Part shown: piece after piece, positions 2,786 to 51,661 of the stretch
Position numbering within the stretch: position 1 is the stretch's first letter
Layout: each line of letters opens with the position of its first letter
From: an uncultured Candidatus Saccharibacteria bacterium
Lineage (GTDB): Bacteria; Patescibacteriota; Minisyncoccia; Phycocordibacterales; CAYSCM01
Assembly: GCA_964429815.1 (NCBI GenBank)
Contig: CAYSCM010000001.1
Location: 437,705-501,704, forward strand
Length of the DNA: 64,000 nucleotides
Direction of reading: 5' to 3'
Notes under the pieces: model-generated
What the model was told of the DNA's origin: nothing
Database searches by the model: none
Seen by the model: only the letters and a program-made list of their open reading frames with translations
Translations under genes and position numbers: made by a program

Positions 2786-3211
2786 ATGAGACGTTCGAAT
2801 GTTGACGCAATTTATGCGGAAAATCCCTTTCTGTCGAAAGTGATCGCGAGAGTCAAGGTTCCAGATGCGCAGGTGAAGCGCTGGAACGAAGATTTCCTCG
2901 GCAGCACACCCGACACCTACCCTGATTCAGGAACTGAAAAGATTTACCTGATCGACGGACAAGGCAACAAGATCGTACGCGTGGGAAGTCTTTCTGATCG
3001 AATCACTGGATTCTTTGGACTCCACCAGAACAGCGAAACGGTCGGACAGGCCTTAGCGCGTATCGGCGACAAAACTCGCCAGGTGCAGTACGCGGTCGGA
3101 GAGTGGAACGGGAGGGTCATTTTGTGGAAACTCCCGAACGGCTACAACAACGCAGCCGATTGGTTGAGGTCGCGGATTGCGGAAGCTCGGGCTGAGCTGA
3201 AAGCATCCTGA
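2786..3211 (+). CDS. hypothetical protein (141 aa)
   Basis: SD AAGGAG lies 7 nt upstream of the ATG. Two rho-independent terminators follow. No recognisable domain. Confidence 0.6.
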   Translation: MRRSNVDAIYAENPFLSKVIARVKVPDAQVKRWNEDFLGSTPDTYPDSGTEKIYLIDGQGNKIVRVGSLSDRITGFFGLHQNSETVGQALARIGDKTRQVQYAVGEWNGRVILWKLPNGYNNAADWLRSRIAEARAELKAS

Positions 3212-3236
3212 TCAACCTACCAGAATAATTGTTTGA

Positions 3237-3270
3237 CCCCAGGCAATCCGGCCTGGGGTTTTATGTTTTC
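3237..3270 (+). terminator. rho-independent terminator
   Basis: Stem ccccaggc / gcctgggg with loop aatccg, followed by ttttatgtttt. Confidence 0.6.
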
Positions 3271-3310
3271 TGATCTAAAACCATTCCGATATCGTTCCAT
3301 ACGGCGCACC

Positions 3311-3352
3311 AAAACAAAAACCCACAGCGAAAGGCTGTGGGTTTTTGTTTTG
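3311..3352. terminator. bidirectional rho-independent terminator
   Basis: Stem cccacagc / gctgtggg with loop gaaag. It is flanked by aaaacaaaaa on the 5' side and tttttgtttt on the 3' side. Confidence 0.6.
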
Positions 3353-3369
3353 GCTCTATACTTAACTCA

Positions 3370-4662
3370 ATGAGCAAAAAGCTCGCCTTCTTTATATTTA
3401 TTGTGTCTGTCGTTGCCGTGTTGGTCGCGACAGCAGTGCAGACATCCGCGGCTCCCATCGTGCCGCAGGTATCCGCCCAGCCCGGCTCTGTTGAAGGCGG
3501 TCCGCTTCGCGCCTGCGACCTCCTCACCCTCTACAACAACATCCTCCGGTTCGGGATCTATGCTGCGACGGTTATTGCGACCCTCATGCTTACCTACGCG
3601 GGCTTCCTCTACATCACCTCCTCGGCCAAGATAGGAAACATTGAAAAGGCACACGGGATTTTTACCAATGTCATCATCGGCTTCATCATTGTCCTCGTCG
3701 CGTGGCTTATCGTCTCGACTCTTTTGCGCGTGTTTACCGCGCAATCGAACTACAATCCGTTCGCCGCGATACAGTGCAATGTTGAAACACCGACGACGAC
3801 GCGCAACGTCACCCCTGCCGGATTTGAAACACAGTCCTATTCTGACTATCCCACCGGTCTTCCCGCCGGAGAGGTTCCGGTGTGCCTCACCGCCGATAGC
3901 GACAGCAATTGCACCACCTACGCTTCCATCGGGCTGCAAGACTCGACCCTTCTTGAGTGCCAGGATCCCGGAGCAACCGGCGAGCAGTACTGTTGCTCGA
4001 TGACTAACGCCGACGGCTCATGTAAGCTAGCGGTCACGGTCGGGCCAAATGGCCAACCTTCCTACAACAACGATGTGGGTGAGAATCTCTACGTAAATCC
4101 GAATGTGGGGCTCACTGGCGTTGCCCCGACAGAAGGTATTTGCTCCCCGGATGCGCTCCAGAGCGTGTGGGGAGATAACGCCGCAACCGCTGGGTGCATA
4201 TGCGCTTCAGAAAGTGGTGGGGGGCTCTACAACGGCATTACGGGCCCGCGCACGGACGTCATGCTCATCGATCAACAGCAGCCAGATGGTTTTTATCCAG
4301 GTTTTTCGGCATGCCCATTCCAGCTCAACGTCACGAGCCTTCCGGCACAATATGGTGGATGTGGCGCGTATACCTGCAATACCAACACACAGGCGTGTAT
4401 GATAAACGGTGTATTAACGCCACCCAATCCCACGAAATGCGATACAAATGTATCAGCCTATGAGCAAACCCTTGGATACAAGGAAGGGGCTCTGAGTCGA
4501 AACGGAGGCTATTGCCATGTGATAACCAATCAACCCGCCTTTAACTCCTGCGTGCAAAACCTTCTTACACCCGGGGGATGTGCCAAGGGAGCTCAATATC
4601 TTCTTGCCAATGGCGGCTGGGCGCACTGGAGTACGAGCGCTAAAAAATGCCGAGCTATATGA
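3370..4662 (+). CDS. TrbC/VirB2-type (T4SS-pilin-like) membrane protein with a Cys-rich extracytoplasmic C-terminal domain
   Basis: A signal peptide is followed by the conserved block ACDLLTLYNNILRFGIYAATVIATLMLTYAGFLYITS...KAHGIFTNVIIGFIIVLVAWLIVSTLLRVF, i.e. two TM helices. Then comes a ~300 aa domain rich in Cys, Gly, Asn and Thr. The true start is taken at MSKKLAFF because the ORF-track start at 3337 lies inside the terminator. Confidence 0.65.
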   Translation: MSKKLAFFIFIVSVVAVLVATAVQTSAAPIVPQVSAQPGSVEGGPLRACDLLTLYNNILRFGIYAATVIATLMLTYAGFLYITSSAKIGNIEKAHGIFTNVIIGFIIVLVAWLIVSTLLRVFTAQSNYNPFAAIQCNVETPTTTRNVTPAGFETQSYSDYPTGLPAGEVPVCLTADSDSNCTTYASIGLQDSTLLECQDPGATGEQYCCSMTNADGSCKLAVTVGPNGQPSYNNDVGENLYVNPNVGLTGVAPTEGICSPDALQSVWGDNAATAGCICASESGGGLYNGITGPRTDVMLIDQQQPDGFYPGFSACPFQLNVTSLPAQYGGCGAYTCNTNTQACMINGVLTPPNPTKCDTNVSAYEQTLGYKEGALSRNGGYCHVITNQPAFNSCVQNLLTPGGCAKGAQYLLANGGWAHWSTSAKKCRAI

Positions 4663-5219
4663 GAAAACTATTACTCACCATCGTGCTCCTTCTTGTAGCG
4701 GTTGTCATCGGTGGTGGAATCTACGTATTCCTCGTTTCGCGCAGCACCCAGCCGGCAAGCGTACAAAACGAAACGGGAACTTCGCCTTTTGGCAGCGGCG
4801 CAGGAGCTATTCCTTCTGGCGGCAGCGGGCAAGGAAATACCACGTCCAGCCAAACCTCGGAGCAATTCATCGTCCTGGGAGCTGACGGTAGCATGATTTC
4901 GGTAGCTGACTTCCGCTCAGAGCCGGGAGTGCAAGAGCTTTCTGACGGGAGCTATCGGCTCGGTCCATTCACCGGAAGCTCGACGTATCAAATTCTCTAC
5001 TATGCCGCCGACAAGAGCTTCACGGTGACTCTTCTCGAGGAGCCACTGGGAGCCACGAGAGAGAGCGCAGAGCAGTACCTCATGAATGCTCTCCAAATCG
5101 GCAAACCCCAGATGTGCAGATTGCGCTATGGTGTCTACGTGCCCATCAAGATCAGCCAGTTCTATGCGGCCACCAATCTCGGATTTAGTTTCTGTCCTCG
5201 CGCGATAAAACTACCATGA
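4659..5219 (+). CDS. membrane-anchored hypothetical protein
   Basis: One N-terminal TM helix (LLLTIVLLLVAVVIGGGIYVFLV). ATGA overlap with the upstream gene. Its stop overlaps the next start, so the three genes are translationally coupled. Confidence 0.6.
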   Translation: MRKLLLTIVLLLVAVVIGGGIYVFLVSRSTQPASVQNETGTSPFGSGAGAIPSGGSGQGNTTSSQTSEQFIVLGADGSMISVADFRSEPGVQELSDGSYRLGPFTGSSTYQILYYAADKSFTVTLLEEPLGATRESAEQYLMNALQIGKPQMCRLRYGVYVPIKISQFYAATNLGFSFCPRAIKLP

Positions 5220-6109
5220 TACGCACCGCCGCAATCGCGCTCATTCTCTTGTGCGTCTTTGTCGTGACACCCTTTGCGCACGCGCAGAGTTTTGCTGGTC
5301 CCATAGTCCCCGATTGTGGTGGTGGCCCGTGCCAAGCCTGCCACCTCGTAAAGCTTGCGGACAACCTCCTGCGTTTCGGCATCTATCTGGCGACCGTCAT
5401 TGCGACTCTAATCCTTGTCTATGCGGGTATTCTCTACATCACCTCAGCGAGCAACCCCAGCAATATTTCGAAAGCACACAGTTTATTTGGGAATGTCATT
5501 CTCGGTTTTATCATCATACTCATCGCTTGGATCGTCGTTGCTACGCTGCTGCGGGTTTTTCTCGGACAGGGCAAAGCTCTTCCGTGGGAGCAGCTCACCT
5601 GTAACGTCACGGCGAATCCTGGCCCGACACCCTCGACCACGCCTCCAGGACTAACCGTAGCACCCCTTGCAGCTCCGCCAGGGGAAGGACAGCTCACTGA
5701 TCCGCAGGCGCGCCTTTCAATTGCCGCCTATAATGAGTCTCATCCTGACGCGCAGGTGTTAACTTGTGGTGATACAGCTTCCTGCCCGGCAATTCGCGAC
5801 CGCGTCCTGTACGGCGGTATTGATAACGGCCTTCTCCAAAATGTCCTTGATACTACCTCTGCGGCCAATAGGGGGAACACCATTGTTACCTCCGCGGCAA
5901 ATGAGCGTACTTCAGCTTCCAATCACCCAAGCGGCAATGCAATTGATATATACGGCACAAGCGCTTTCAATGCCTATGTTCAAAGCTTTCCGGCGGTCCC
6001 AGGTCTTTCAAACACATACCAGGTCGGGAATTATCGATACTGGTGGGAGCCATCAGGCACGGCTAATTCAACAGGGGACCATTGGCATATCTCAAAGACC
6101 GGACGTTGA
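5216..6109 (+). CDS. TrbC/VirB2-type pilin-like membrane protein fused to an LAS/M15-type metallopeptidase domain
   Basis: The N-terminus is paralogous to the protein at 3370-4662 (CHLVKLADNLLRFGIYLATVIATLILVYAGILYITS...KAHSLFGNVILGFIIILIAWIVVATLLRVF). After a Pro/Thr linker the C-terminus carries SNHPSGNAID (H-x6-D) and DHWH (H-x-H). These are the zinc-ligand signature of LAS / peptidase M15 cell-wall peptidases. Confidence 0.6.
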   Translation: MIRTAAIALILLCVFVVTPFAHAQSFAGPIVPDCGGGPCQACHLVKLADNLLRFGIYLATVIATLILVYAGILYITSASNPSNISKAHSLFGNVILGFIIILIAWIVVATLLRVFLGQGKALPWEQLTCNVTANPGPTPSTTPPGLTVAPLAAPPGEGQLTDPQARLSIAAYNESHPDAQVLTCGDTASCPAIRDRVLYGGIDNGLLQNVLDTTSAANRGNTIVTSAANERTSASNHPSGNAIDIYGTSAFNAYVQSFPAVPGLSNTYQVGNYRYWWEPSGTANSTGDHWHISKTGR

Positions 6110-6394: not shown

Positions 6395-6466
6395 GGGCCT
6401 ATAGTTTAATTGGTAAAACAGCGGTCTCCAAAACCGCCATTCCCCGTTCAAGTCGGGGTGGGCCCG
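6395..6466 (+). tRNA. tRNA-Trp (anticodon CCA)
   Basis: Acceptor GGGCCTA/TGGGCCC. Anticodon stem GCGGT/ACCGC with loop CTCCAAA. T-arm CCCCG-TTCAAGT-CGGGG. Confidence 0.8.
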
Positions 6467-7367
6467 CCTGGAATTTATACGAGAGCGCTTTCTTCGCGGA
6501 CGAAAACCAACGTATGCCGTTGTCACGTTTCCACCACGTCATCTGTCGACGCGAGAACTGCCAAATGGCAGCCTCAAGCCGCGTGAGCATCTCCTCTTTG
6601 GATAGTTTCCCCTCAAGGTAGTCGGCGAGATAGCGATACTCAAGTCCAAGCTCACGCATGCGCTTCAAGCGGAGCCCCCTTCGTCGTAGGCGCTTCGCCT
6701 CAGCGACCATTCCCTCTCGTATACGGGCATGAAGACGTTTCGCAATGTTGGCTCGGAGTTGCGAGTCTTTTGGCCGTATCCCGATTGTTACTGCCTCGTA
6801 GCGTGGTTTCGGGAGCTCTGCGGTTTTTTCTGCTGCGAGTGCGACCTCGATGGCGCGAATGAGACGCACGGGATTTTGCTTGTCGATAGTGAGATAGCGA
6901 CGCGGGGCGAGCTCTTTAAGGAGTGTTTTGAGTTCTGGGAGCGTCTTCTTTCTTAAATGATGTCTGAGAGCGGCGTCTGGCCGGACATTGGCAAGCTTTG
7001 TCTTACCGAGTGCGGCATCGATGTAAAACGCCGAGCCGCCGACCATGATGGGCAGTTTACCGCGCCGCGCTATATCCTCGATAGCGGCGCGGGCAGCGAT
7101 AGCGAAATCATACGCAGTGAAGACCCGCTTAGGGTCAGCGATGTCGAGGAGGTGATGGCGGACACCTTTCATCTCACGTTTCGTAATTTTGCCCGTGCCA
7201 ATCGTGAGACCGCGATATACCTGTCGAGAATCCGCGGAAATTATCTCGCCGTTAAGTTTTTTTGCCAGTCGCACACCCAGGCCGCTTTTCCCAGAGGCTG
7301 TGGGGCCGACTATAACGAGCACTTTTGTTCTTACGGACCTGTTTTTGTATACTTCTTTCGTACTCAT
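6399..7367 (-). CDS. miaA: tRNA dimethylallyltransferase
   Basis: P-loop VIVGPTASGKSGL, then EIISADSRQVYRGLTIGTGK and the rest of the MiaA core. The 3' ~65 nt of the ORF are antisense to tRNA-Trp. Confidence 0.85.
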   Translation of the reverse strand: MSTKEVYKNRSVRTKVLVIVGPTASGKSGLGVRLAKKLNGEIISADSRQVYRGLTIGTGKITKREMKGVRHHLLDIADPKRVFTAYDFAIAARAAIEDIARRGKLPIMVGGSAFYIDAALGKTKLANVRPDAALRHHLRKKTLPELKTLLKELAPRRYLTIDKQNPVRLIRAIEVALAAEKTAELPKPRYEAVTIGIRPKDSQLRANIAKRLHARIREGMVAEAKRLRRRGLRLKRMRELGLEYRYLADYLEGKLSKEEMLTRLEAAIWQFSRRQMTWWKRDNGIRWFSSAKKALSYKFQAGPPRLERGMAVLETAVLPIKL

Positions 7368-9106: not shown

Positions 9107-9916
9107 ATGTCAGAGTCACTCACTAAGCGGCTCCGATTCGTGGAGACGTTTCAACGTCAAGCTGAACGAGAAAGTGAGAGGGACGAGTTTCAAATCGGGC
9201 GCCTCAAAGAACAACAGAGGCGGCGCAAGGAACGTGTCTATCAAATCCTTCGTCGCCTGAAGAGCGATCTGTCGACTGGAAGAATCCCGGTTCACAACCG
9301 ATTTCTCGCGTACGCCGCGCAGACGACCCACGCCGAAGGTCTGCACAATATTCCCTATCATTCCGCAGCTCTGAAGGCTCTCCACGGCGACTTATTGAAA
9401 AAGGAAGGGGAGTTGGCACTGGTAGCCACACTCTACATGCCCGAGTACCGACCGAGCGTCATAGTGGGTGTAATTGCTGCCGGCGGGTTACTAATCGGAG
9501 TAAACTCGCGAGGCGATCGCACCTGCTTCATTGATACTTCAAAACTCTCTCTCTGCTTCGGCGAGGAGGCTCATGATATGCCGGACGGACCGATGGCGAT
9601 TGATGTTCCCCTTAGTCCCAGGTGGAGCAAGGATGACGGTCCACGACCTGAAGCGGGGTTTAACTGGCACTTTAAATTTTTCTTGGAGAACCACTTTGGT
9701 TGGCCAAAGCGGCGTGGGATTAAGGCGTTCGTCGCCGAATTACGTCGGGTGTGGTCCGGAGAAGGGATGCCGGAGAAAGGGTCTCAGTACCTTCTTTTGG
9801 GAAATGACGCCATCCGTAAAGCACAATACTTACTACAGCGTAGTGGAGTTGATCTTGGTCAGGTCAAAAAACTTTTTGGAGTCGATCTGAGCAAATCAAT
9901 TTCGGCGGCAGCCTAA
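9107..9916 (+). CDS. hypothetical protein (269 aa)
   Basis: SD AAGGGAG upstream of the start. A terminator hairpin (gcccagtgcgcaagcgctgggc + T5) follows at about 9927-9960. No recognisable domain. Confidence 0.6.
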   Translation: MSESLTKRLRFVETFQRQAERESERDEFQIGRLKEQQRRRKERVYQILRRLKSDLSTGRIPVHNRFLAYAAQTTHAEGLHNIPYHSAALKALHGDLLKKEGELALVATLYMPEYRPSVIVGVIAAGGLLIGVNSRGDRTCFIDTSKLSLCFGEEAHDMPDGPMAIDVPLSPRWSKDDGPRPEAGFNWHFKFFLENHFGWPKRRGIKAFVAELRRVWSGEGMPEKGSQYLLLGNDAIRKAQYLLQRSGVDLGQVKKLFGVDLSKSISAAA

Positions 9917-9968
9917 TTCACCTACAAGCCCAGTGCGCAAGCGCTGGGCTTTTTGTTACAATATCGAA

Positions 9969-10886
9969 ATGACCCCCTACGTCGGAGACTCCATTTTTTG
10001 GGTCGAGCTCGATCGCATCAAGCCCAACCCCTACCAGCCGCGGCGAGAGTTCGACGAGGGGAAACTTTCCGACCTCGCTGAGTCGATACGGCAGTACGGC
10101 GTGTTGCAGCCCATCGTCGTTACGCGCAAAGAGGTCCGCAAGGAGGACGGTGGCATCGTAAGCGAGTACGAGCTCATCGCTGGCGAGCGTAGGCTCCGCG
10201 CCAGCAGGCTTGCTGGCCTTTCCCAAATTCCGGCCATTATTCGCAACGAAGCGGAAAGTGATCGGATGAAGCTCGAGCTCGCCATCATCGAAAATTTGCA
10301 GCGCGAAGACCTCAATCCCATGGACCGCGCTCGCGCGTTCGAGCGCCTCGTGAAGGAATTCGGCTTCAAGCAATCACAGATCGCGGACAAGGTGGCCAAG
10401 AGCCGCGAATATGTCGCCAACACCGTCCGCCTCCTCATGCTTCCCGCGCATATGCAGCAAGCCCTCTCGGAGGGGAAAATGACCGAGGGTCACACGCGGC
10501 CGCTTCTCATGCTTATCGACCGTAAAGACGAGCAGGAGGTCCTTTTCAAGGAAATACTCCTCAAGAAGCTTACCGTGCGCGAGGCGGAGGGTATCGCACG
10601 CCGCATTGCGGTCGACCGCGTCCGCAAGCGCGAGCTAGAGCCGGAACTCATTGAGCTTGAAAAAGCCCTCACCGAGCGTCTTGGCACGCGCGTGAAGATA
10701 GAAAAAAAGGAAGTTGGCGGCAAGCTTGTTATCGACTACTTTGACGCCAAGGACCTCCAGAGCATCGCCGATACGCTTTCGGCTAAAACCAGTTCTTCCG
10801 GTGGGGCGGAACCCGAAGTTCCGATCAATGACAAGCCGGAAAACGAGGAGGACGGCCTCTACTCGATAAAAAACTTCAGCGTTTAG
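9969..10886 (+). CDS. parB: chromosome partitioning protein ParB/Spo0J
   Basis: ParB box GERRLRASRLAGL..IPAI, then the HTH and C-terminal dimerisation region. Start chosen at MTPYVGD because the upstream in-frame ATG lies inside the preceding terminator. Confidence 0.8.
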   Translation: MTPYVGDSIFWVELDRIKPNPYQPRREFDEGKLSDLAESIRQYGVLQPIVVTRKEVRKEDGGIVSEYELIAGERRLRASRLAGLSQIPAIIRNEAESDRMKLELAIIENLQREDLNPMDRARAFERLVKEFGFKQSQIADKVAKSREYVANTVRLLMLPAHMQQALSEGKMTEGHTRPLLMLIDRKDEQEVLFKEILLKKLTVREAEGIARRIAVDRVRKRELEPELIELEKALTERLGTRVKIEKKEVGGKLVIDYFDAKDLQSIADTLSAKTSSSGGAEPEVPINDKPENEEDGLYSIKNFSV

Positions 10887-12471
10887 TCGAGACCTTCCCG
10901 CCCGCGGCTTCTTTACGTGCGATGGCGGCACGGATATGCTTCTGCGCGAACGACGTTTTGGCGACGTCGAGCCATTTGGCGTTCGGATGGGCCGATTCTT
11001 TTGTCATGATTTCGACAATGTCGCCGTTATGAAGAGGGGTGTCGATGGAGACAAGCTTGCCGTTCACCTTGGCACCTGTGAGGTGATCGCCGATGTCGGA
11101 GTGGATGGCGTAAGCAAAGTCGACGGGAGAGGCGCCGATGGGGAGGTCGACGACGTCACCCTTGGGGGTGAAAGCAAAAACGCGGTGGCTGAAAAAGTCG
11201 GTTTTGAGCTTATCCATGAATTCTTTTCCTTGACCTGCTTCGTCCACTCCAGCCAGGTCTTCGACCCATCGGGGCACGGTCGAGATGCTGTACTTCGTAC
11301 GTGATGCATGAGGCAGGTCTTTTTTTGGGTTTGCTTTTGGAGTCACTGCGGTTTTGCGTGAGCCCACGAACGGGATAAGGCTCCGAAGCCAGTTGATGCT
11401 TTGTCGCTCGATCGTCCCGCCCGGCCGCTCTTTGTAGAGAACGTGCGAGGCGATACCATACTCGGCCTCCTGATGCATTTTTTCGGTCCGTATCTGTATC
11501 TCGACAAGGGAGCCATCTCCGGTAAAAACCGTGGTATGGATAGATTGGTAGCCGTTCGGTTTCGGAAACGCGATATAGTCCTTGATCTTGTTTGGAAGCG
11601 GGCGAAAATTGGCGTGCACGATGCCGAGCACTTTGTAGCAATCCTCGACGGAGGGCACAACAATGCGCAGCGCAGCAAGATCGTATATCTTGTCGACATC
11701 CCCATCCTTGCGCTCGAGCTTTCGGTAGAGGCTGTAGAGCCCTTTTATGCGGTAGTCTGTTTTGAAATTCGTGATGCCGCCCGACGCAAGTTTTTTCTTA
11801 AGGTCCTTGAGAACCTTCGCGAGCCGCTCGGTCGTTGGGGTCGCGCGCTCTTTGCGTAGCTTCTCCGTCTCCTCGTACTCTTTTGGTTGAACATATTTAA
11901 ACGAAAGATCCTCAAGCTCGCGACGGAGGAGTCCCATACCGAGCCGATGAGCGATAGGCGCGAATATCTCGAGGGTCTCAAGTGCTATACGCCGCTGTTT
12001 GTCGGAGGGCACATGCTCGAGCGTCTTCATGTTGTGGAGCCGGTCCATGAGCTTGATGAGGAGGACCCTGATGTCCTGTGAGGTCGCGACCATAAGGCGG
12101 CGCAAGCTCTCGGTATGGCGCTCTAGGCCGCGGTACTTGAGATGCCCAAGCTTGGTGACCCCGCGGATAAGGAACAATATTTCATCCCCGAACTCTTTCT
12201 CAATAGTCTCCTCGGTCACCCCGACGTCCTCGATGGTGTCGTGGAGGAGCCCTGCGGAGATGGTGCGTGGACCGAAGCCCAGTTCTGCGAGGCTTTTTGC
12301 GGTTTCGAAAAGGTGGTTGAAGTAAGGCTCCCCGGAGAAGCGCTTATGGTCCTTGTGGGCGTTTTCAGCAAACGAGTAAGCTTTTTCAACGAGTTTTATA
12401 TCCTCGGCGGAGGGGTCGTGCATCAGGGATGTGATGTCTTTGACAGATGCCATGTTTTCTAGTATAGTCAC
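10876..12471 (-). CDS. rel: bifunctional (p)ppGpp synthetase/hydrolase (RelA/SpoT family, short form)
   Basis: HD hydrolase (HLFETA...LLHDTIED), synthetase (RFKTDYRIKGLYSLYRK...YQSIHTTV) and TGS domains. Confidence 0.85.
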   Translation of the reverse strand: MTILENMASVKDITSLMHDPSAEDIKLVEKAYSFAENAHKDHKRFSGEPYFNHLFETAKSLAELGFGPRTISAGLLHDTIEDVGVTEETIEKEFGDEILFLIRGVTKLGHLKYRGLERHTESLRRLMVATSQDIRVLLIKLMDRLHNMKTLEHVPSDKQRRIALETLEIFAPIAHRLGMGLLRRELEDLSFKYVQPKEYEETEKLRKERATPTTERLAKVLKDLKKKLASGGITNFKTDYRIKGLYSLYRKLERKDGDVDKIYDLAALRIVVPSVEDCYKVLGIVHANFRPLPNKIKDYIAFPKPNGYQSIHTTVFTGDGSLVEIQIRTEKMHQEAEYGIASHVLYKERPGGTIERQSINWLRSLIPFVGSRKTAVTPKANPKKDLPHASRTKYSISTVPRWVEDLAGVDEAGQGKEFMDKLKTDFFSHRVFAFTPKGDVVDLPIGASPVDFAYAIHSDIGDHLTGAKVNGKLVSIDTPLHNGDIVEIMTKESAHPNAKWLDVAKTSFAQKHIRAAIARKEAAGGKVSTKR

Positions 12472-28372: not shown

Positions 28373-29839
28373 CTATTTGAGAACGCTCCACATGCCCTGA
28401 TCCTCGCCGCCGTCCATTTTAAAGACGGCAACGCCGCGCACGCCGAGGCCCCGTGCGAGGTCGACTTTGTCTTTGATAGCCTGCGCGTCGTTCCAGGTCA
28501 TGTAGTTGAAAGGTTTGCTCGCATCGATTTGTGAGCCGAGATTTTGTGCAACGGAAGTTGTCGCGACCTCTTGCTGCGTTTGCGTGATGTTACCATCGGC
28601 CGGCGCCTGCGGAAGCGTCGCTTTGTCGTAGATGAAACCTACCTCGTTCGCGCTTGTGCGATGCACGGCGATGCCAAGCCGCGCGGCGATGTCGGTCGCA
28701 TATCCGGGGTTAAACGGCCAGAGCACTTCATACTGAAAACCCGAGCCGGAAAGTGGCGTCACGTGGTACTCGTAGCCGTAGGTCGGAATGCCGATGATGA
28801 GCTTATTGCGGGAAATGGTTTGTGCTGCAAGACGCACAAGATCTTCAACCCAGCCGGGGTCCGCGACCGGTGCGTACGGGGCGGAGCGTGCGACGTTTAA
28901 GCGCTTATCGACCGTCGTCTGATCATAGGCCATGATCTCGACGCGATCGCAGTACTTATTGAGCGCGACGTAGTCGTTGGCGTAGTCGGTCGCGTCCGGC
29001 GGAATGGTGTCGCCCGGAAGATAGCGGTCCTCAAGCGGCATGCGGGCTTCGACGGTGCAGTACACCCACTTTTGCCCCATGCGCTGGTAGAGGCCTTTGA
29101 GGAAGGTCGAGAAGTAGTTGATGGTCTCATGCTTTTTGGCTTCAAAGTCGATGTCTATGCCGTCAAAGCCCATGCCCTTCACGGTCGCCGCGATCTCGTC
29201 TTCCAGCGCGATACGCTTTGTGGTATTGCTCAATACCGCCTGCATCGCATCTGCGTTGCCCCAGAGAATGCTCGGCACCACGCGCACCTTGGTGGCCTTT
29301 GCCTGTGCGATAAAATCGCTCCAAGGTTCAAAGCCAAGTTGTGCGGTATCGATAAGATGACCATCTGAGCTCACGTTGTAGGAGAAGGGCATTACACTTG
29401 CTAGCTGAGGCAGGTGGGGGATGACGTCTCGGGTCGCTGTCGCTACTCGCCAGTAGGGAACCCAGCCGCTTATTTCAAATTTTCCGGTGGCAGCGGGTGT
29501 AAGAGTGAGGGAAATTTTTGCAGGATTTTTGGGGTACGTGGTCCCAAGCGTGAGAGCAGCTTGCGTTCTTGGGCCATACACACCGTAGCCGGTCGCATCT
29601 TCTGTACAGATGACCTCCTGCGCGCACTGGAACTTTTTAATCGCTGCTTGTGTGAGAGGACCAAAGTAGCCGGAGTCTTTTCCGGAGGCAAGATAACCCT
29701 GCGCGATGAGTTTTTGCTGGAGAGTAGCCACATCGCTTCCTGAATCGCCAAGCGATAGGGAGCGAGTCGCTGCGGAGGCCGTGGGCGCGATGAGGAGTAC
29801 GAAGAAAAGCGGAAGTGCAAATAAAAAACGTCGTGGCAT
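28373..29839 (-). CDS. secreted GH18 family protein with an N-terminal peptidoglycan-binding domain
   Basis: Signal peptide. PG_binding_1-like region (DSGSDVATLQQKLIAQGYL...FGPLTQAAIKKFQ). GH18 catalytic motif GFDGIDIDFE (DGxDxDxE). Confidence 0.75.
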   Translation of the reverse strand: MPRRFLFALPLFFVLLIAPTASAATRSLSLGDSGSDVATLQQKLIAQGYLASGKDSGYFGPLTQAAIKKFQCAQEVICTEDATGYGVYGPRTQAALTLGTTYPKNPAKISLTLTPAATGKFEISGWVPYWRVATATRDVIPHLPQLASVMPFSYNVSSDGHLIDTAQLGFEPWSDFIAQAKATKVRVVPSILWGNADAMQAVLSNTTKRIALEDEIAATVKGMGFDGIDIDFEAKKHETINYFSTFLKGLYQRMGQKWVYCTVEARMPLEDRYLPGDTIPPDATDYANDYVALNKYCDRVEIMAYDQTTVDKRLNVARSAPYAPVADPGWVEDLVRLAAQTISRNKLIIGIPTYGYEYHVTPLSGSGFQYEVLWPFNPGYATDIAARLGIAVHRTSANEVGFIYDKATLPQAPADGNITQTQQEVATTSVAQNLGSQIDASKPFNYMTWNDAQAIKDKVDLARGLGVRGVAVFKMDGGEDQGMWSVLK

Positions 29840-29922
29840 GTTCACATAGTAGCAGACGAACATAAAGAGGGGCGCTTACTCTTCGGCATCGGGTACTAGC
29901 AGCAATTTGCTAGAATTGACCC

Positions 29923-49420: not shown

Positions 49421-51661
49421 ATGTTCATGAGACTTCATAGCCGCTTGATGGAAACAAGCCGGTTTTATAATTGGTGGCATCATCTCCCCATCGTTTCCAT
49501 TGTTCACTTTGCCGCCGTCATCGCGGTGGGATCAGTACTCGCGACGACCATCCAAAACGAGGCGGCCGACCAGCTGATCGAGAGCCAGCTCGCGCAAACC
49601 ATCCTCAGCGTCGGCTCCGGTTCGGCCTCGCTGGGCTCTTTGACGTCGCAGCTGCTTATGCTCGCTAAACACTACGATGGGACGGCCGGCGAAGCGGATA
49701 CCCAGCTTCGAAAAATGAGGCAAGTCGCCAACATGCGCACACAACTACTGCTCTCGCTCGCACAAGGGAACCCAAAAGCCTTCATTCTCAATGCGTTGCC
49801 GGAGAGTATCAGCAGACAGCTGCCGAGTGCCCTCGCCGGCTTAGTAGAGGAGCCGATCGACGTGGAAGGCGCGCTGACGGTCATCCACTTCGACGCGCCT
49901 CCCAACCAGGCTGGGGAAAAGACGGAGTACATTTTGACAAGTGGCAGCAAACGATACCAGCTGCATTTCGCTGGCTTTGTCCCCGAGGGTATGCGCACCG
50001 GTGCAACCGTGCGGGTCCACGGCCTTGCGCTGAGCTCCGAGCTAGTTCCGATCGCCACTGCGGGCGGTAGCGGCACTGCCCTCACTAGCCCCGCCACGGC
50101 GGGTGCACCAACGGGCCCGCAAAAAACGCTTGTCATTCTTTTTAATTTCACCGACAACGCCAGCCAGCCCTTCACCCCGGCGGACGTCGCGTCAACGGTG
50201 TTCACGGCACCGAGCTCGACTAATAGTTACTACAAAGAAGCTTCCTTTGGAACGCTCTCCATGGCAGGGGACGTGGTCGGCTGGTACACCATTCCCTACG
50301 GCGCTGCCGGATGCGACGCCAACTACAACACCTGGAGCAGTGCCGCGCAGCAGGCGGCGATCGTCGCTGGAGTTCCGGTCAACACCTATAGCCACATAAT
50401 CTACATGTGGAACAATTCCTCCGGCTGCTCCTGGGGTGGCATAGGTACCATCGGAGGAGCCCCTTCCTCTGCATGGATACCGGATTGGTATCTCACCCCG
50501 ACGGTCATCGCGCACGAGTTCGGACACAACATTCTCGCTCACCACGCGCAGCTCCTCTCCTGCGCCCCCGGAACCGTCGGACCGTACTCGACCTGTACGC
50601 TCAGTGAATATGGCGACCCTTCCGACTGCATGGGCAGTTGCTGGACGCAATATTTCCAGTTTGTCGGAGCCCGGAAACTAGGAGAAAATTGGCTGCCCGC
50701 AAGCAGTGTACAGACGATAACGGGGAGCGGGACCTATACGGTTACCGCAGAAGAAGTGAACGATGGAGGCATTAAATTGCTGAAGGTGGCAAAGCCGGAC
50801 ACCGCGGAGGCCTACTATGTGTCGCTGCGACGGCCAGCGGGTTTTGACGCCCTCATCCCCGCCGCATACACAACCGGTGCGAACATTCACATCTGGAACG
50901 GGGACGTCAGCACCCAAACAAAACTGGTCAACGGGCCGCTCTCCGACGGGGGAGCGCTCGTCGATGCGGGGAACGGCATCACGTTCACTCAGGTAAGCCA
51001 TACCCCGACGTCGGTGACTGTCAGCATTCAGTTCACCGGCGCGAAGTGCGTACCTGCCGCCCCGACAGTGACGCTTTCTCCGGCAAGCCAGGGTTCGAGC
51101 GCCGGCGGGACGCTCACCTACGGCGTCACCGTGAAAAACAACGACAGCTCGATCTGCTCAGGCTCCATCTTCAACCTGACGAGCACTGTCCCCTCTGGAT
51201 GGGCCGATGCGTTTGGTCAGAGCTCGCTTAGCATAAACGCCGGCAACTCCGCGAACACGACGCTCAGCCTCACCTCCCAAATGGGCGTAGCAGATGGGAC
51301 GTATCCTATTTCTACGACGGCGGTAGGAGGCACCGGGACCGGCTCAGCCTCGGGCTCCTACGTGGTGTACACCGACACCGTCGGACCCCTCCTCTCCATC
51401 AATGCACCCGCTGATGGGACTAACGTCAACTCCGTCAAGGGAAACAATCTGAAAATCTCAACAACCGCGACTGACCCCTCGGGTGTAGGAAACATCGTGA
51501 TATTCTTTGACGGAAAAATGGTGCAAACCTGCGCGGGAGCGACGTCATGCGTTGGGAGTGTCCCTGTCCGACAACTGTCGCCTGGGTCGCACGCGATCTC
51601 GGCTACCGCGACCGACAAAGTCGGAAACACTTCGACCAAATCCGTGTCGGTCACGAAATAG
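49421..51661 (+). CDS. secreted zincin metalloprotease-like protein with C-terminal Ig-like (Big) domains
   Basis: HEFGHNILAHH (HExxH with a third His at +6) within a ~350 aa catalytic region. C-terminal repeats resemble bacterial Ig-like domains. Confidence 0.6.
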   Translation: MFMRLHSRLMETSRFYNWWHHLPIVSIVHFAAVIAVGSVLATTIQNEAADQLIESQLAQTILSVGSGSASLGSLTSQLLMLAKHYDGTAGEADTQLRKMRQVANMRTQLLLSLAQGNPKAFILNALPESISRQLPSALAGLVEEPIDVEGALTVIHFDAPPNQAGEKTEYILTSGSKRYQLHFAGFVPEGMRTGATVRVHGLALSSELVPIATAGGSGTALTSPATAGAPTGPQKTLVILFNFTDNASQPFTPADVASTVFTAPSSTNSYYKEASFGTLSMAGDVVGWYTIPYGAAGCDANYNTWSSAAQQAAIVAGVPVNTYSHIIYMWNNSSGCSWGGIGTIGGAPSSAWIPDWYLTPTVIAHEFGHNILAHHAQLLSCAPGTVGPYSTCTLSEYGDPSDCMGSCWTQYFQFVGARKLGENWLPASSVQTITGSGTYTVTAEEVNDGGIKLLKVAKPDTAEAYYVSLRRPAGFDALIPAAYTTGANIHIWNGDVSTQTKLVNGPLSDGGALVDAGNGITFTQVSHTPTSVTVSIQFTGAKCVPAAPTVTLSPASQGSSAGGTLTYGVTVKNNDSSICSGSIFNLTSTVPSGWADAFGQSSLSINAGNSANTTLSLTSQMGVADGTYPISTTAVGGTGTGSASGSYVVYTDTVGPLLSINAPADGTNVNSVKGNNLKISTTATDPSGVGNIVIFFDGKMVQTCAGATSCVGSVPVRQLSPGSHAISATATDKVGNTSTKSVSVTK

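Follow-up and report, generated by a model that had tools for sequence, protein, structure and literature searches.

VirB2-like pilins of Patescibacteria make up the family PF18895 and are encoded in arrays (PMC10633639; PMC12102498), with a mean pairwise identity of 25% and a maximum of 54% (Wang et al. 2023, PMC10633639; Quinonero-Coronel et al. 2025, PMC12102498). The type IV secretion systems (T4SS) of Patescibacteria that contain such pilins are unusual and were essential in the one system tested; the pilin gene is found close to virB4 in 1135 of 1948 assemblies, and no recognisable VirB1 hydrolase is present in most genomes with VirB2-like pilins (PMC12102498). The pilins of the T4SS cluster are essential in Southlakia epibionticum (PMC10633639; PMC12857230), as are the peptidase and lysozyme genes adjoining virB4 (PMC12102498; PMC10633639). 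VirB1-type hydrolases of Gram-positive conjugative T4SS, such as TraG of pIP501 and PrgK of pCF10, combine SLT and CHAP domains (PMC12102498). Both the pilin arrays of Patescibacteria and T4SS-associated wall hydrolases are thus already described. In the literature searched we found no published description of a covalent fusion of a VirB2-like pilin to an LAS or SLT hydrolase, nor of the LAS subfamily reported here.

This subfamily came to light in a 64,000-nucleotide stretch of DNA from an uncultured Candidatus Saccharibacteria bacterium (assembly GCA_964429815.1, contig CAYSCM010000001.1, positions 437,705 to 501,704), hereafter called the window and numbered from its first nucleotide. It contains an array of three genes, the first and third of which encode proteins that share a VirB2-like pilin module and carry unrelated C-terminal heads. 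The head of the third protein is very likely a divergent Hedgehog/DD-peptidase (LAS, M15-like) domain in terms of homology and fold.

A VirB2-like pilin module extended by C-terminal heads

The three open reading frames (ORFs) lie on the plus strand and encode proteins of 430, 186 and 297 residues, named here proteins 1, 2 and 3; identical lengths were obtained by independent gene calling on a public Logan contig. Their features are as follows.

3370-4662, plus strand: protein 1, with signal peptide, VirB2-like pilin module and 295-residue Cys-rich head
3514-3516 and 3775-3777, plus strand: conserved Cys pair of protein 1, C49 before helix 1 and C136 after helix 2
3526-3723, plus strand: match to PF18895 (T4SS_pilin) in protein 1, residues 53-118, 31.0 bits against a cut-off of 26.6
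3775-4659, plus strand: Cys-rich C-terminal domain of protein 1, residues 136-430, 19 Cys
4659-5219, plus strand: protein 2, with one N-terminal transmembrane helix and a Ser/Gly-rich domain of about 155 residues
5216-6109, plus strand: protein 3, with signal peptide, VirB2-like pilin module, Pro/Thr-rich linker and predicted LAS zinc-peptidase domain
5339-5341 and 5600-5602, plus strand: conserved Cys pair of protein 3, C42 before helix 1 and C129 after helix 2
5375-5542, plus strand: match to PF18895 in protein 3, residues 54-109, 24.1 bits, just under the cut-off of 26.6
5606-5692, plus strand: Pro/Thr/Ala/Gly-rich linker of protein 3, residues 131-159 (29 residues), with 27% Pro over the analysed residues 131-160
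5693-6106, plus strand: LAS-type domain of protein 3, residues 160-297
5924-5947, plus strand: H237-x6-D244 within S-x-H-x-x-G-N-A-x-D, proposed zinc ligands 1 and 2
6047-6049, plus strand: invariant E278, proposed general base, equated with E177 of Shh
6080-6088, plus strand: invariant H289-W-H291 (H-x-H), proposed second-shell or catalytic His and zinc ligand 3

Proteins 1 and 3 are 49% identical over 138 residues (BLASTP, E=6e-39), which is not a chance resemblance, and show no significant similarity to each other beyond residue ~138. Hydropathy analysis revealed in both a signal-like N-terminus followed by two hydrophobic segments (residues 62-83 and 91-126 of protein 1; 50-79 and 84-119 of protein 3). 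The common architecture of signal peptide and two transmembrane helices that a preliminary description of this DNA had read from the sequence is therefore confirmed. Judged by eye, AXA-type signal cleavage would occur after A28 in protein 1 and A23 in protein 3. The same description had classified the module as a TrbC/VirB2-type pilin and had expected a search of the N-termini to retrieve pilin families, including T4SS_pilin, a candidate phyla radiation (CPR) family. The latter match was indeed obtained: protein 1 exceeds the PF18895 cut-off, and protein 3, which by itself falls below it, is a clear homologue of protein 1. By contrast, assignment to the classical TrbC/VirB2 family PF04956 (cut-off 27.9 bits) did not hold, as protein 3 scored 11.2 bits (E=0.46) and protein 1 had no match. 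CPR T4SS_pilin is thus the accurate label. The signal peptide and the hairpin of two hydrophobic helices that characterize this family are present by hydropathy, and together with the profile matches they show proteins 1 and 3 to belong, in extended form, to the VirB2-like pilins of Patescibacteria.

In their signal peptide, two-helix hairpin and PF18895 match the two proteins resemble the pilins of published Patescibacteria arrays, in which divergent paralogues stand in tandem or one non-pilin gene apart, as does the 49% identical pair described here. An array of two pilin genes interrupted by one other gene is thus an already known arrangement. By contrast, no extra C-terminal domains are mentioned for the published pilins (PMC10633639; PMC12102498), whereas proteins 1 and 3, with their 430 and 297 residues, carry globular heads. 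A third copy of the module was not found in the window with a profile of the shared region.

In both proteins the signal peptide is followed by a short Cys-bearing segment, the two-helix hairpin, a second conserved Cys and the added domain. The two Cys, which flank the hairpin, are separated by ~87 residues in each protein, and it is plausible that a disulfide joins the hairpin ends on the outer face. Some VirB2/TrbC pilins are cyclised head to tail, a feature that such a staple of the hairpin ends may loosely recall.

The LAS-type domain of protein 3

The H-x6-D (SNHPSGNAID) and H-x-H (DHWH) motifs from which a zinc peptidase of the LAS/M15 type had been proposed are present in protein 3 and correspond to H237/D244 and H289/H291. 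When searched directly, the head of protein 3 had no match in Pfam, NCBIfam, PHROGs or, by phmmer, the PDB. A word-indexed homologue search likewise returned nothing for the head and, for full-length protein 3, only the protein itself and one bare pilin. When 1.84 billion representatives were searched exhaustively with HMMER, eight non-self matches were obtained. Three of them (P0003, PE; P0005, ankyrin; P0007, SHOCT/TrbI) were dropped as repeat-protein noise, and the other five (P0004, P0006, P0008, P0009 and P0010; E from 1e-9 to 9e-4) are true relatives, all of which retain S-x-H-x-x-G-x-A-x-D and H-W-H. Throughout the family alignment T225, S226, H237, G240, A242, D244, E278, H289 and H291 are invariant. 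Several of the relatives show weak matches to VanY, Peptidase_M15_3 and M15_4.

A profile built from the family only reached E values of no better than ~0.2-0.6 against the PDB, with 20 of the 24 listed matches being LAS proteins (1lbu and Hedgehog N-domains) that were aligned on the H-x6-D motif. This profile also recovered more distant sequences, among them P0011, which exceeds the cut-off of Pfam HH_signal (25.8 versus 22.1 bits), and P0015, which falls just short of that of Peptidase_M15_3 (22.4 versus 23.2 bits). Aligned with hhalign, the family profile (A2) and that of P0011 to P0015 (A5) matched at 98.2% (E=3.6e-14). The merged profile (A6) retrieved the N-domains of Shh, Ihh and Dhh from the PDB with E values of 4.4e-5 to 5e-4; 27 of its 28 matches have the LAS fold, and it aligns H237 with the H and D244 with the D of 'SLHYEGRAVDI' in Shh. 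Structure-based searches with Foldseek gave no significant match in the PDB or BFVD, the top match in the latter being annotated 'Peptidase M15A, C-terminal'. A tblastn search of phage genomes with the LAS head and P0015 found no match.

The zinc ligands H141 and D148 of Shh, the roles of its active-site residues and the definition of the H-x6-D and H-x-H motifs are described in PMC6027127. Based on the merged alignment we equate H237 and D244 with H141 and D148 of Shh, and a transitive alignment through P0011 ('LEKDHIH') suggests that E278 is the counterpart of E177. With H237, D244 and H291 as proposed zinc ligands next to E278 and H289, protein 3 retains the full catalytic set. Established members of the LAS superfamily, i.e. 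MEROPS M15 enzymes (the zinc DD-carboxypeptidase of S. albus, 1lbu; VanY; phage L-Ala-D-Glu peptidases), MepA and the Hedgehog N-domains, thus have H-x6-D, H-x-H and a Glu upstream of H-x-H in common with the head of protein 3. They differ from it in that the Arg aligned to R138 of 1lbu is not conserved in the protein 3 family, in a 10-residue insertion between E278 and H289, in a Cys-flanked loop of protein 3 and in the fusion to a pilin module.

None of the curated M15 models of Pfam reaches its threshold on protein 3 alone, which, like the modest E values of the family-only profile, is a caveat to the LAS assignment. The missing M15 match, the non-conserved Arg and the 10-residue insertion would also suit a non-catalytic adhesin head that binds peptidoglycan stems or another ligand, reminiscent of the disputed peptidase status of Hedgehog. 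However, H237, D244, E278, H289 and H291 are invariant in ten family sequences whose identity to protein 3 is only 22-43%, and such invariance at low identity is expected of a working active site rather than of a binding scaffold. Moreover, in Drosophila Hedgehog, a known inactive case, exactly these residues are lost (PMC6027127), whereas they are kept here. We therefore regard a mere binding function as highly improbable. The head of protein 3 probably is an active peptidoglycan peptidase, and by its profile relationships its family forms a small branch of the Hedgehog/DD-peptidase superfamily that had not been annotated before.

In the structure model of protein 3, residues 131-158 of the linker have a predicted local distance difference test (pLDDT) score below 50. 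The loop mentioned above corresponds to an insertion, LTCGDTASCPAI, with two Cys (C184-C190; window 5765-5785); it occurs in protein 3 only, is absent from the five closest relatives and falls in a low-confidence stretch of the model.

Related loci and the variation of heads

Genomes and metagenomes were scanned for related loci with four queries, of which P0004 found matches and full-length protein 3, full-length P0008 and the head of protein 1 found none. We compared the flanking genes of the window with those of L003 (a 270-kb JGI contig), L002 (a Candidatus Adlerbacteria metagenome-assembled genome (MAG)) and L005 (a JGI contig). The order ClpB, pilin genes, MiaA, ParB is conserved, and the flanks Aminotran_5, (Trypsin_2), ClpB on one side and MiaA, ParB, RelA/SpoT, TopA, DprA, SerRS on the other recur wholly or partly. 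The array had been thought to occupy a typical accessory-region position. This needs to be corrected: the site is a syntenically conserved slot whose content differs among related genomes.

In L003 the slot holds a single bare pilin of 171 residues, which suggests that the pilin is ancestral and the enzyme an add-on. The slot of L002 contains a pilin-LAS fusion (L002a, of which P0004 is a shortened call) and, directly after it, a second pilin (L002b) whose Cys-rich head displays E-S ... G-P-M-Q ... A-V-Y-S-G motifs. In L005 the pilin-LAS fusion P0008 (L005a) is followed at 3040-4257 by the gene for a 405-residue pilin-SLT protein (L005b) that matches both PF01464 (SLT; 37.3 bits, E=2.3e-9) and PF18895. 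The head of L002b is homologous to the SLT head of L005 (41% identity, z=24.8), the latter being the only one confirmed as SLT by Pfam. A fourth locus, L006, comprises a pilin-LAS gene cut by the contig edge (L006a, of which P0006 is the 3' part) and then a pilin-module gene. A pilin-LAS gene is thus directly followed by a pilin-module gene at three related loci (L002, L005 and L006), the partner being a pilin-SLT fusion at two of them. All five members of the LAS subfamily for which N-terminal information is available (protein 3, L002a, L005a, P0009 and L006a) are pilin fusions. Across the loci the same module bears an LAS, an SLT, a Cys-rich or no head. The earlier suggestion of a carrier module that displays variable heads is supported by this comparison, and the pilin module is shown to be a carrier for exchangeable heads. 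One pilin-module protein (L006:617-1567) has an N-terminal extension of ~200 residues, which by eye consists of an Ig-like part and a Gly/Ser/Thr-rich linker; heads thus appear to be attachable at either end of the module.

Within L002 the two pilin modules are 100% identical at the DNA level over 461 bp (9827-10287 and 10829-11289), and the same is true for 446 bp in L005 (2145-2590 and 3142-3587). In both cases identity begins just past the differing signal peptides and stops at the start of the heads. Between L002 and L005 the modules are only 74.5% identical, which suggests that each lineage underwent a recent duplication or gene conversion. With 49% amino acid identity, the pair in the window is far more diverged than either of these pairs. 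The Cys residues flanking the hairpin are kept in all seven modules read (proteins 1 and 3, P0002, L002a/b, L005a/b and the complete module of the second L006 gene).

Two further observations concern the neighbourhood of the slot. Between ClpB and the bare pilin, L003 contains on the minus strand (L003:850-6843) a 1997-residue ORF without Pfam matches, the equivalent of which has 2143 residues in L004. In the Adlerbacteria MAG, ClpB is present as three overlapping ORFs (L002:6861-9552), indicative of frameshifts that are either assembly errors or the mark of a pseudogene.

The head of protein 1 has no relative in Pfam, the PDB, the metagenome scan or the syntenic loci. With 295 residues and 19 of the 20 Cys of the protein (from residue 136 onward), it agrees with the Cys-rich module of about 300 residues that had been described before. 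A single-sequence AlphaFold model of it had a pLDDT of 34 and was unusable. Motifs of the type 'ASESGGG...SACPFQLN' raised the possibility that it is an SLT domain; this was rejected, as MAFFT favoured another register in which the catalytic Glu is lost, the hhalign probability was 0.3%, no Pfam match was obtained at E<=10, and Smith-Waterman z values were 0.8 and 0.2 against the SLT heads of L005 and L002, compared with 24.8 for the positive control. For protein 2, an orphan, family, PDB and homologue searches revealed no homologue. Its PDB match to Tako8 is an artefact of scores below 4 bits summed across a designed repeat. The Ser/Gly-rich domain of protein 2 would be extracytoplasmic.

Among the typical antibacterial effectors of type VI secretion systems and of the Xanthomonas-type T4SS are peptidases and glycosidases that target the wall. 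A constant N-terminal module, variable heads (LAS, SLT, Cys-rich) and a hypervariable site could be taken to represent a polymorphic effector or toxin system, in which a pilin or trafficking module delivers exchangeable wall-degrading heads and protein 2, membrane-anchored, presumably extracytoplasmic and encoded directly after protein 1, serves as immunity or accessory protein. As in polymorphic toxin systems, heads are swapped on a constant part that shows signs of recombination or homogenisation. Unlike in those systems, the LAS and SLT genes of the window, L002, L005 and L006 are followed by no candidate immunity gene (in the latter three the genes abut), and a membrane pilin takes the place of a known toxin-delivery domain as the constant part. 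Protein 2, the sole possible immunity protein, is without homologues, and the own wall of a monoderm producer would be met by the secreted enzyme. Delivery of the heads as toxins is, in our view, decidedly improbable.

Genomic setting and proposed role

At both junctions the three genes overlap by ATGA, in agreement with the preliminary description and compatible with their translational coupling. Upstream of them, the predicted tRNA-Tyr gene, single hypothetical gene and two terminators were all recovered, the terminators as hairpins followed by U-runs.

2570-2654: tRNA-Tyr
2786-3211: 141-residue ORF without family matches
3235-3260, plus strand: terminator-like hairpin 1, a 10-bp GC-rich stem followed by a U-run, 3' of the 141-residue ORF
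3309-3353, terminator-like on both strands: hairpin 2, a perfect 20-bp stem between an A-run and a U-run

The region that covers both hairpins (3225-3372) has a fold z of -7.4, and hairpin 2 ends 16 nt before the ATG of protein 1. An Rfam match of hairpin 2 to Thr_leader was discarded because it occurs on both strands and lies below gathering, reflecting terminator or hairpin likeness only. None of the three genes is preceded by a Shine-Dalgarno-like sequence. A TATACT hexamer, placed directly after hairpin 2, has its end 7 nt upstream of the ATG of protein 1 (window 3357-3370), and a leaderless transcript of this gene is conceivable. The array is followed by rpmG (L33). A tRNA-Trp gene (6395-6468, plus strand) and the 3' end of the MiaA ORF (6399-7367, minus strand) overlap by ~70 nt.

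Elsewhere in the window, the segment 45653-47518 encodes a 402-residue protein, which has no Pfam match and begins with a hydrophobic stretch resembling a signal peptide, and immediately after it a sortase (PF04203, E=6e-21); the two may form a pair of sortase and surface-protein substrate. A protein with a signal-peptide-like hydrophobic N-terminus and PG_binding_1 and GH18 domains (28373-29863, minus strand) may be another wall- or chitin-active enzyme of the same genome. A 746-residue protein (49421-51661) weakly matches gametolysin (Peptidase_M11) and has a bacterial Ig domain (Big_7) at its C-terminus.

Pfam scans of 20 further ORFs detected neither VirB4, VirD4, VirB6 nor other T4SS components in the 64-kb window, as had been stated before. 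Unlike pilin arrays beside virB4, the array thus lies in the ClpB-MiaA slot with no T4SS gene in the window. This setting is what would be expected of housekeeping, membrane-tethered autolysins whose hairpin is a mere anchor and whose LAS and SLT domains remodel the cell's own wall without any pilus or T4SS. The neighbours (ClpB, MiaA, ParB, RelA, TopA) are of a housekeeping type, the position is conserved in four genomes, and the linkage of pilin genes to virB4 quoted at the outset covers just part of the assemblies. However, homology links the anchor to a family defined as T4SS pilins, with protein 1 above the Pfam threshold; in L003 a bare pilin stands alone at the site; and modules that are completely identical in DNA within a genome suggest more constraint than a simple anchor would need. 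We thus consider such autolysins unlikely. Judged by synteny and by a GC content of 52-61%, the source organism is probably an Adlerbacteria-like member of the Paceibacteria. In Table S1 of PMC12102498 at least three assemblies of Candidatus Adlerbacteria, the lineage to which the L002 MAG belongs, are marked VirB4-positive.

The closest functional parallel is provided by TraG and PrgK, which are likewise membrane-anchored and open the wall with a glycosidase (SLT) and a peptidase; such a pair is encoded at the L002 and L005 loci. By contrast, the two activities here reside on separate polypeptides, each fused to a pilin, the peptidase is a predicted LAS zinc enzyme instead of a CHAP or NlpC-P60 domain, the window encodes the peptidase without a recognisable SLT, and the association with a T4SS is inferred.

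While the domain architecture is solid, function has to be deduced from it. We consider it reasonably probable, and the best overall explanation, that the fusions are pilin-anchored peptidoglycan hydrolases acting where a T4SS or pilus passes the wall. By homology with the topology of VirB2 the heads would be located outside the membrane, that of protein 3 being tethered to the pilin hairpin by its flexible linker. The locus would thereby provide a pilin-anchored peptidase, to which relatives would add a glycosidase. The pilin module would most likely target these enzymes to the T4SS or pilus assembly site, or be incorporated as a minor pilus subunit, and cutting of peptide stems or cross-links would let the apparatus pass the wall, be it the own wall, with the enzyme as a VirB1 surrogate, or that of the host. 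The Cys-rich part of protein 1 may be a further surface head and protein 2 a membrane-anchored accessory protein. The lack of VirB1 in most of the genomes concerned, and the essential peptidase and lysozyme genes next to virB4 in S. epibionticum, fit such a wall-opening role. Incorporation into a pilus, the substrate, and the own or the host wall as target are speculative, as is the function behind the originally suggested display of a peptidoglycan-cleaving enzyme, the structural part of which, a pilin-LAS fusion, stood. It is tempting to go one step further and to imagine that the modules polymerise into a VirB2-like pilus which carries LAS (in relatives SLT) domains on its subunits or tip and bores through the host wall, the heads being exchanged by recombination and gene conversion keeping the modules identical for co-assembly; this extension is doubtful.

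Our study adds enzymes to a class of pilins that Patescibacteria use in unusual T4SS and shows the pilin module in a role as carrier. In a group of bacteria most of which possess no recognisable VirB1 hydrolase, the pilin-peptidase fusion and, in relatives, the pilin-lytic transglycosylase fusions are testable candidates for the missing wall-opening function or for a device that attacks the host wall.

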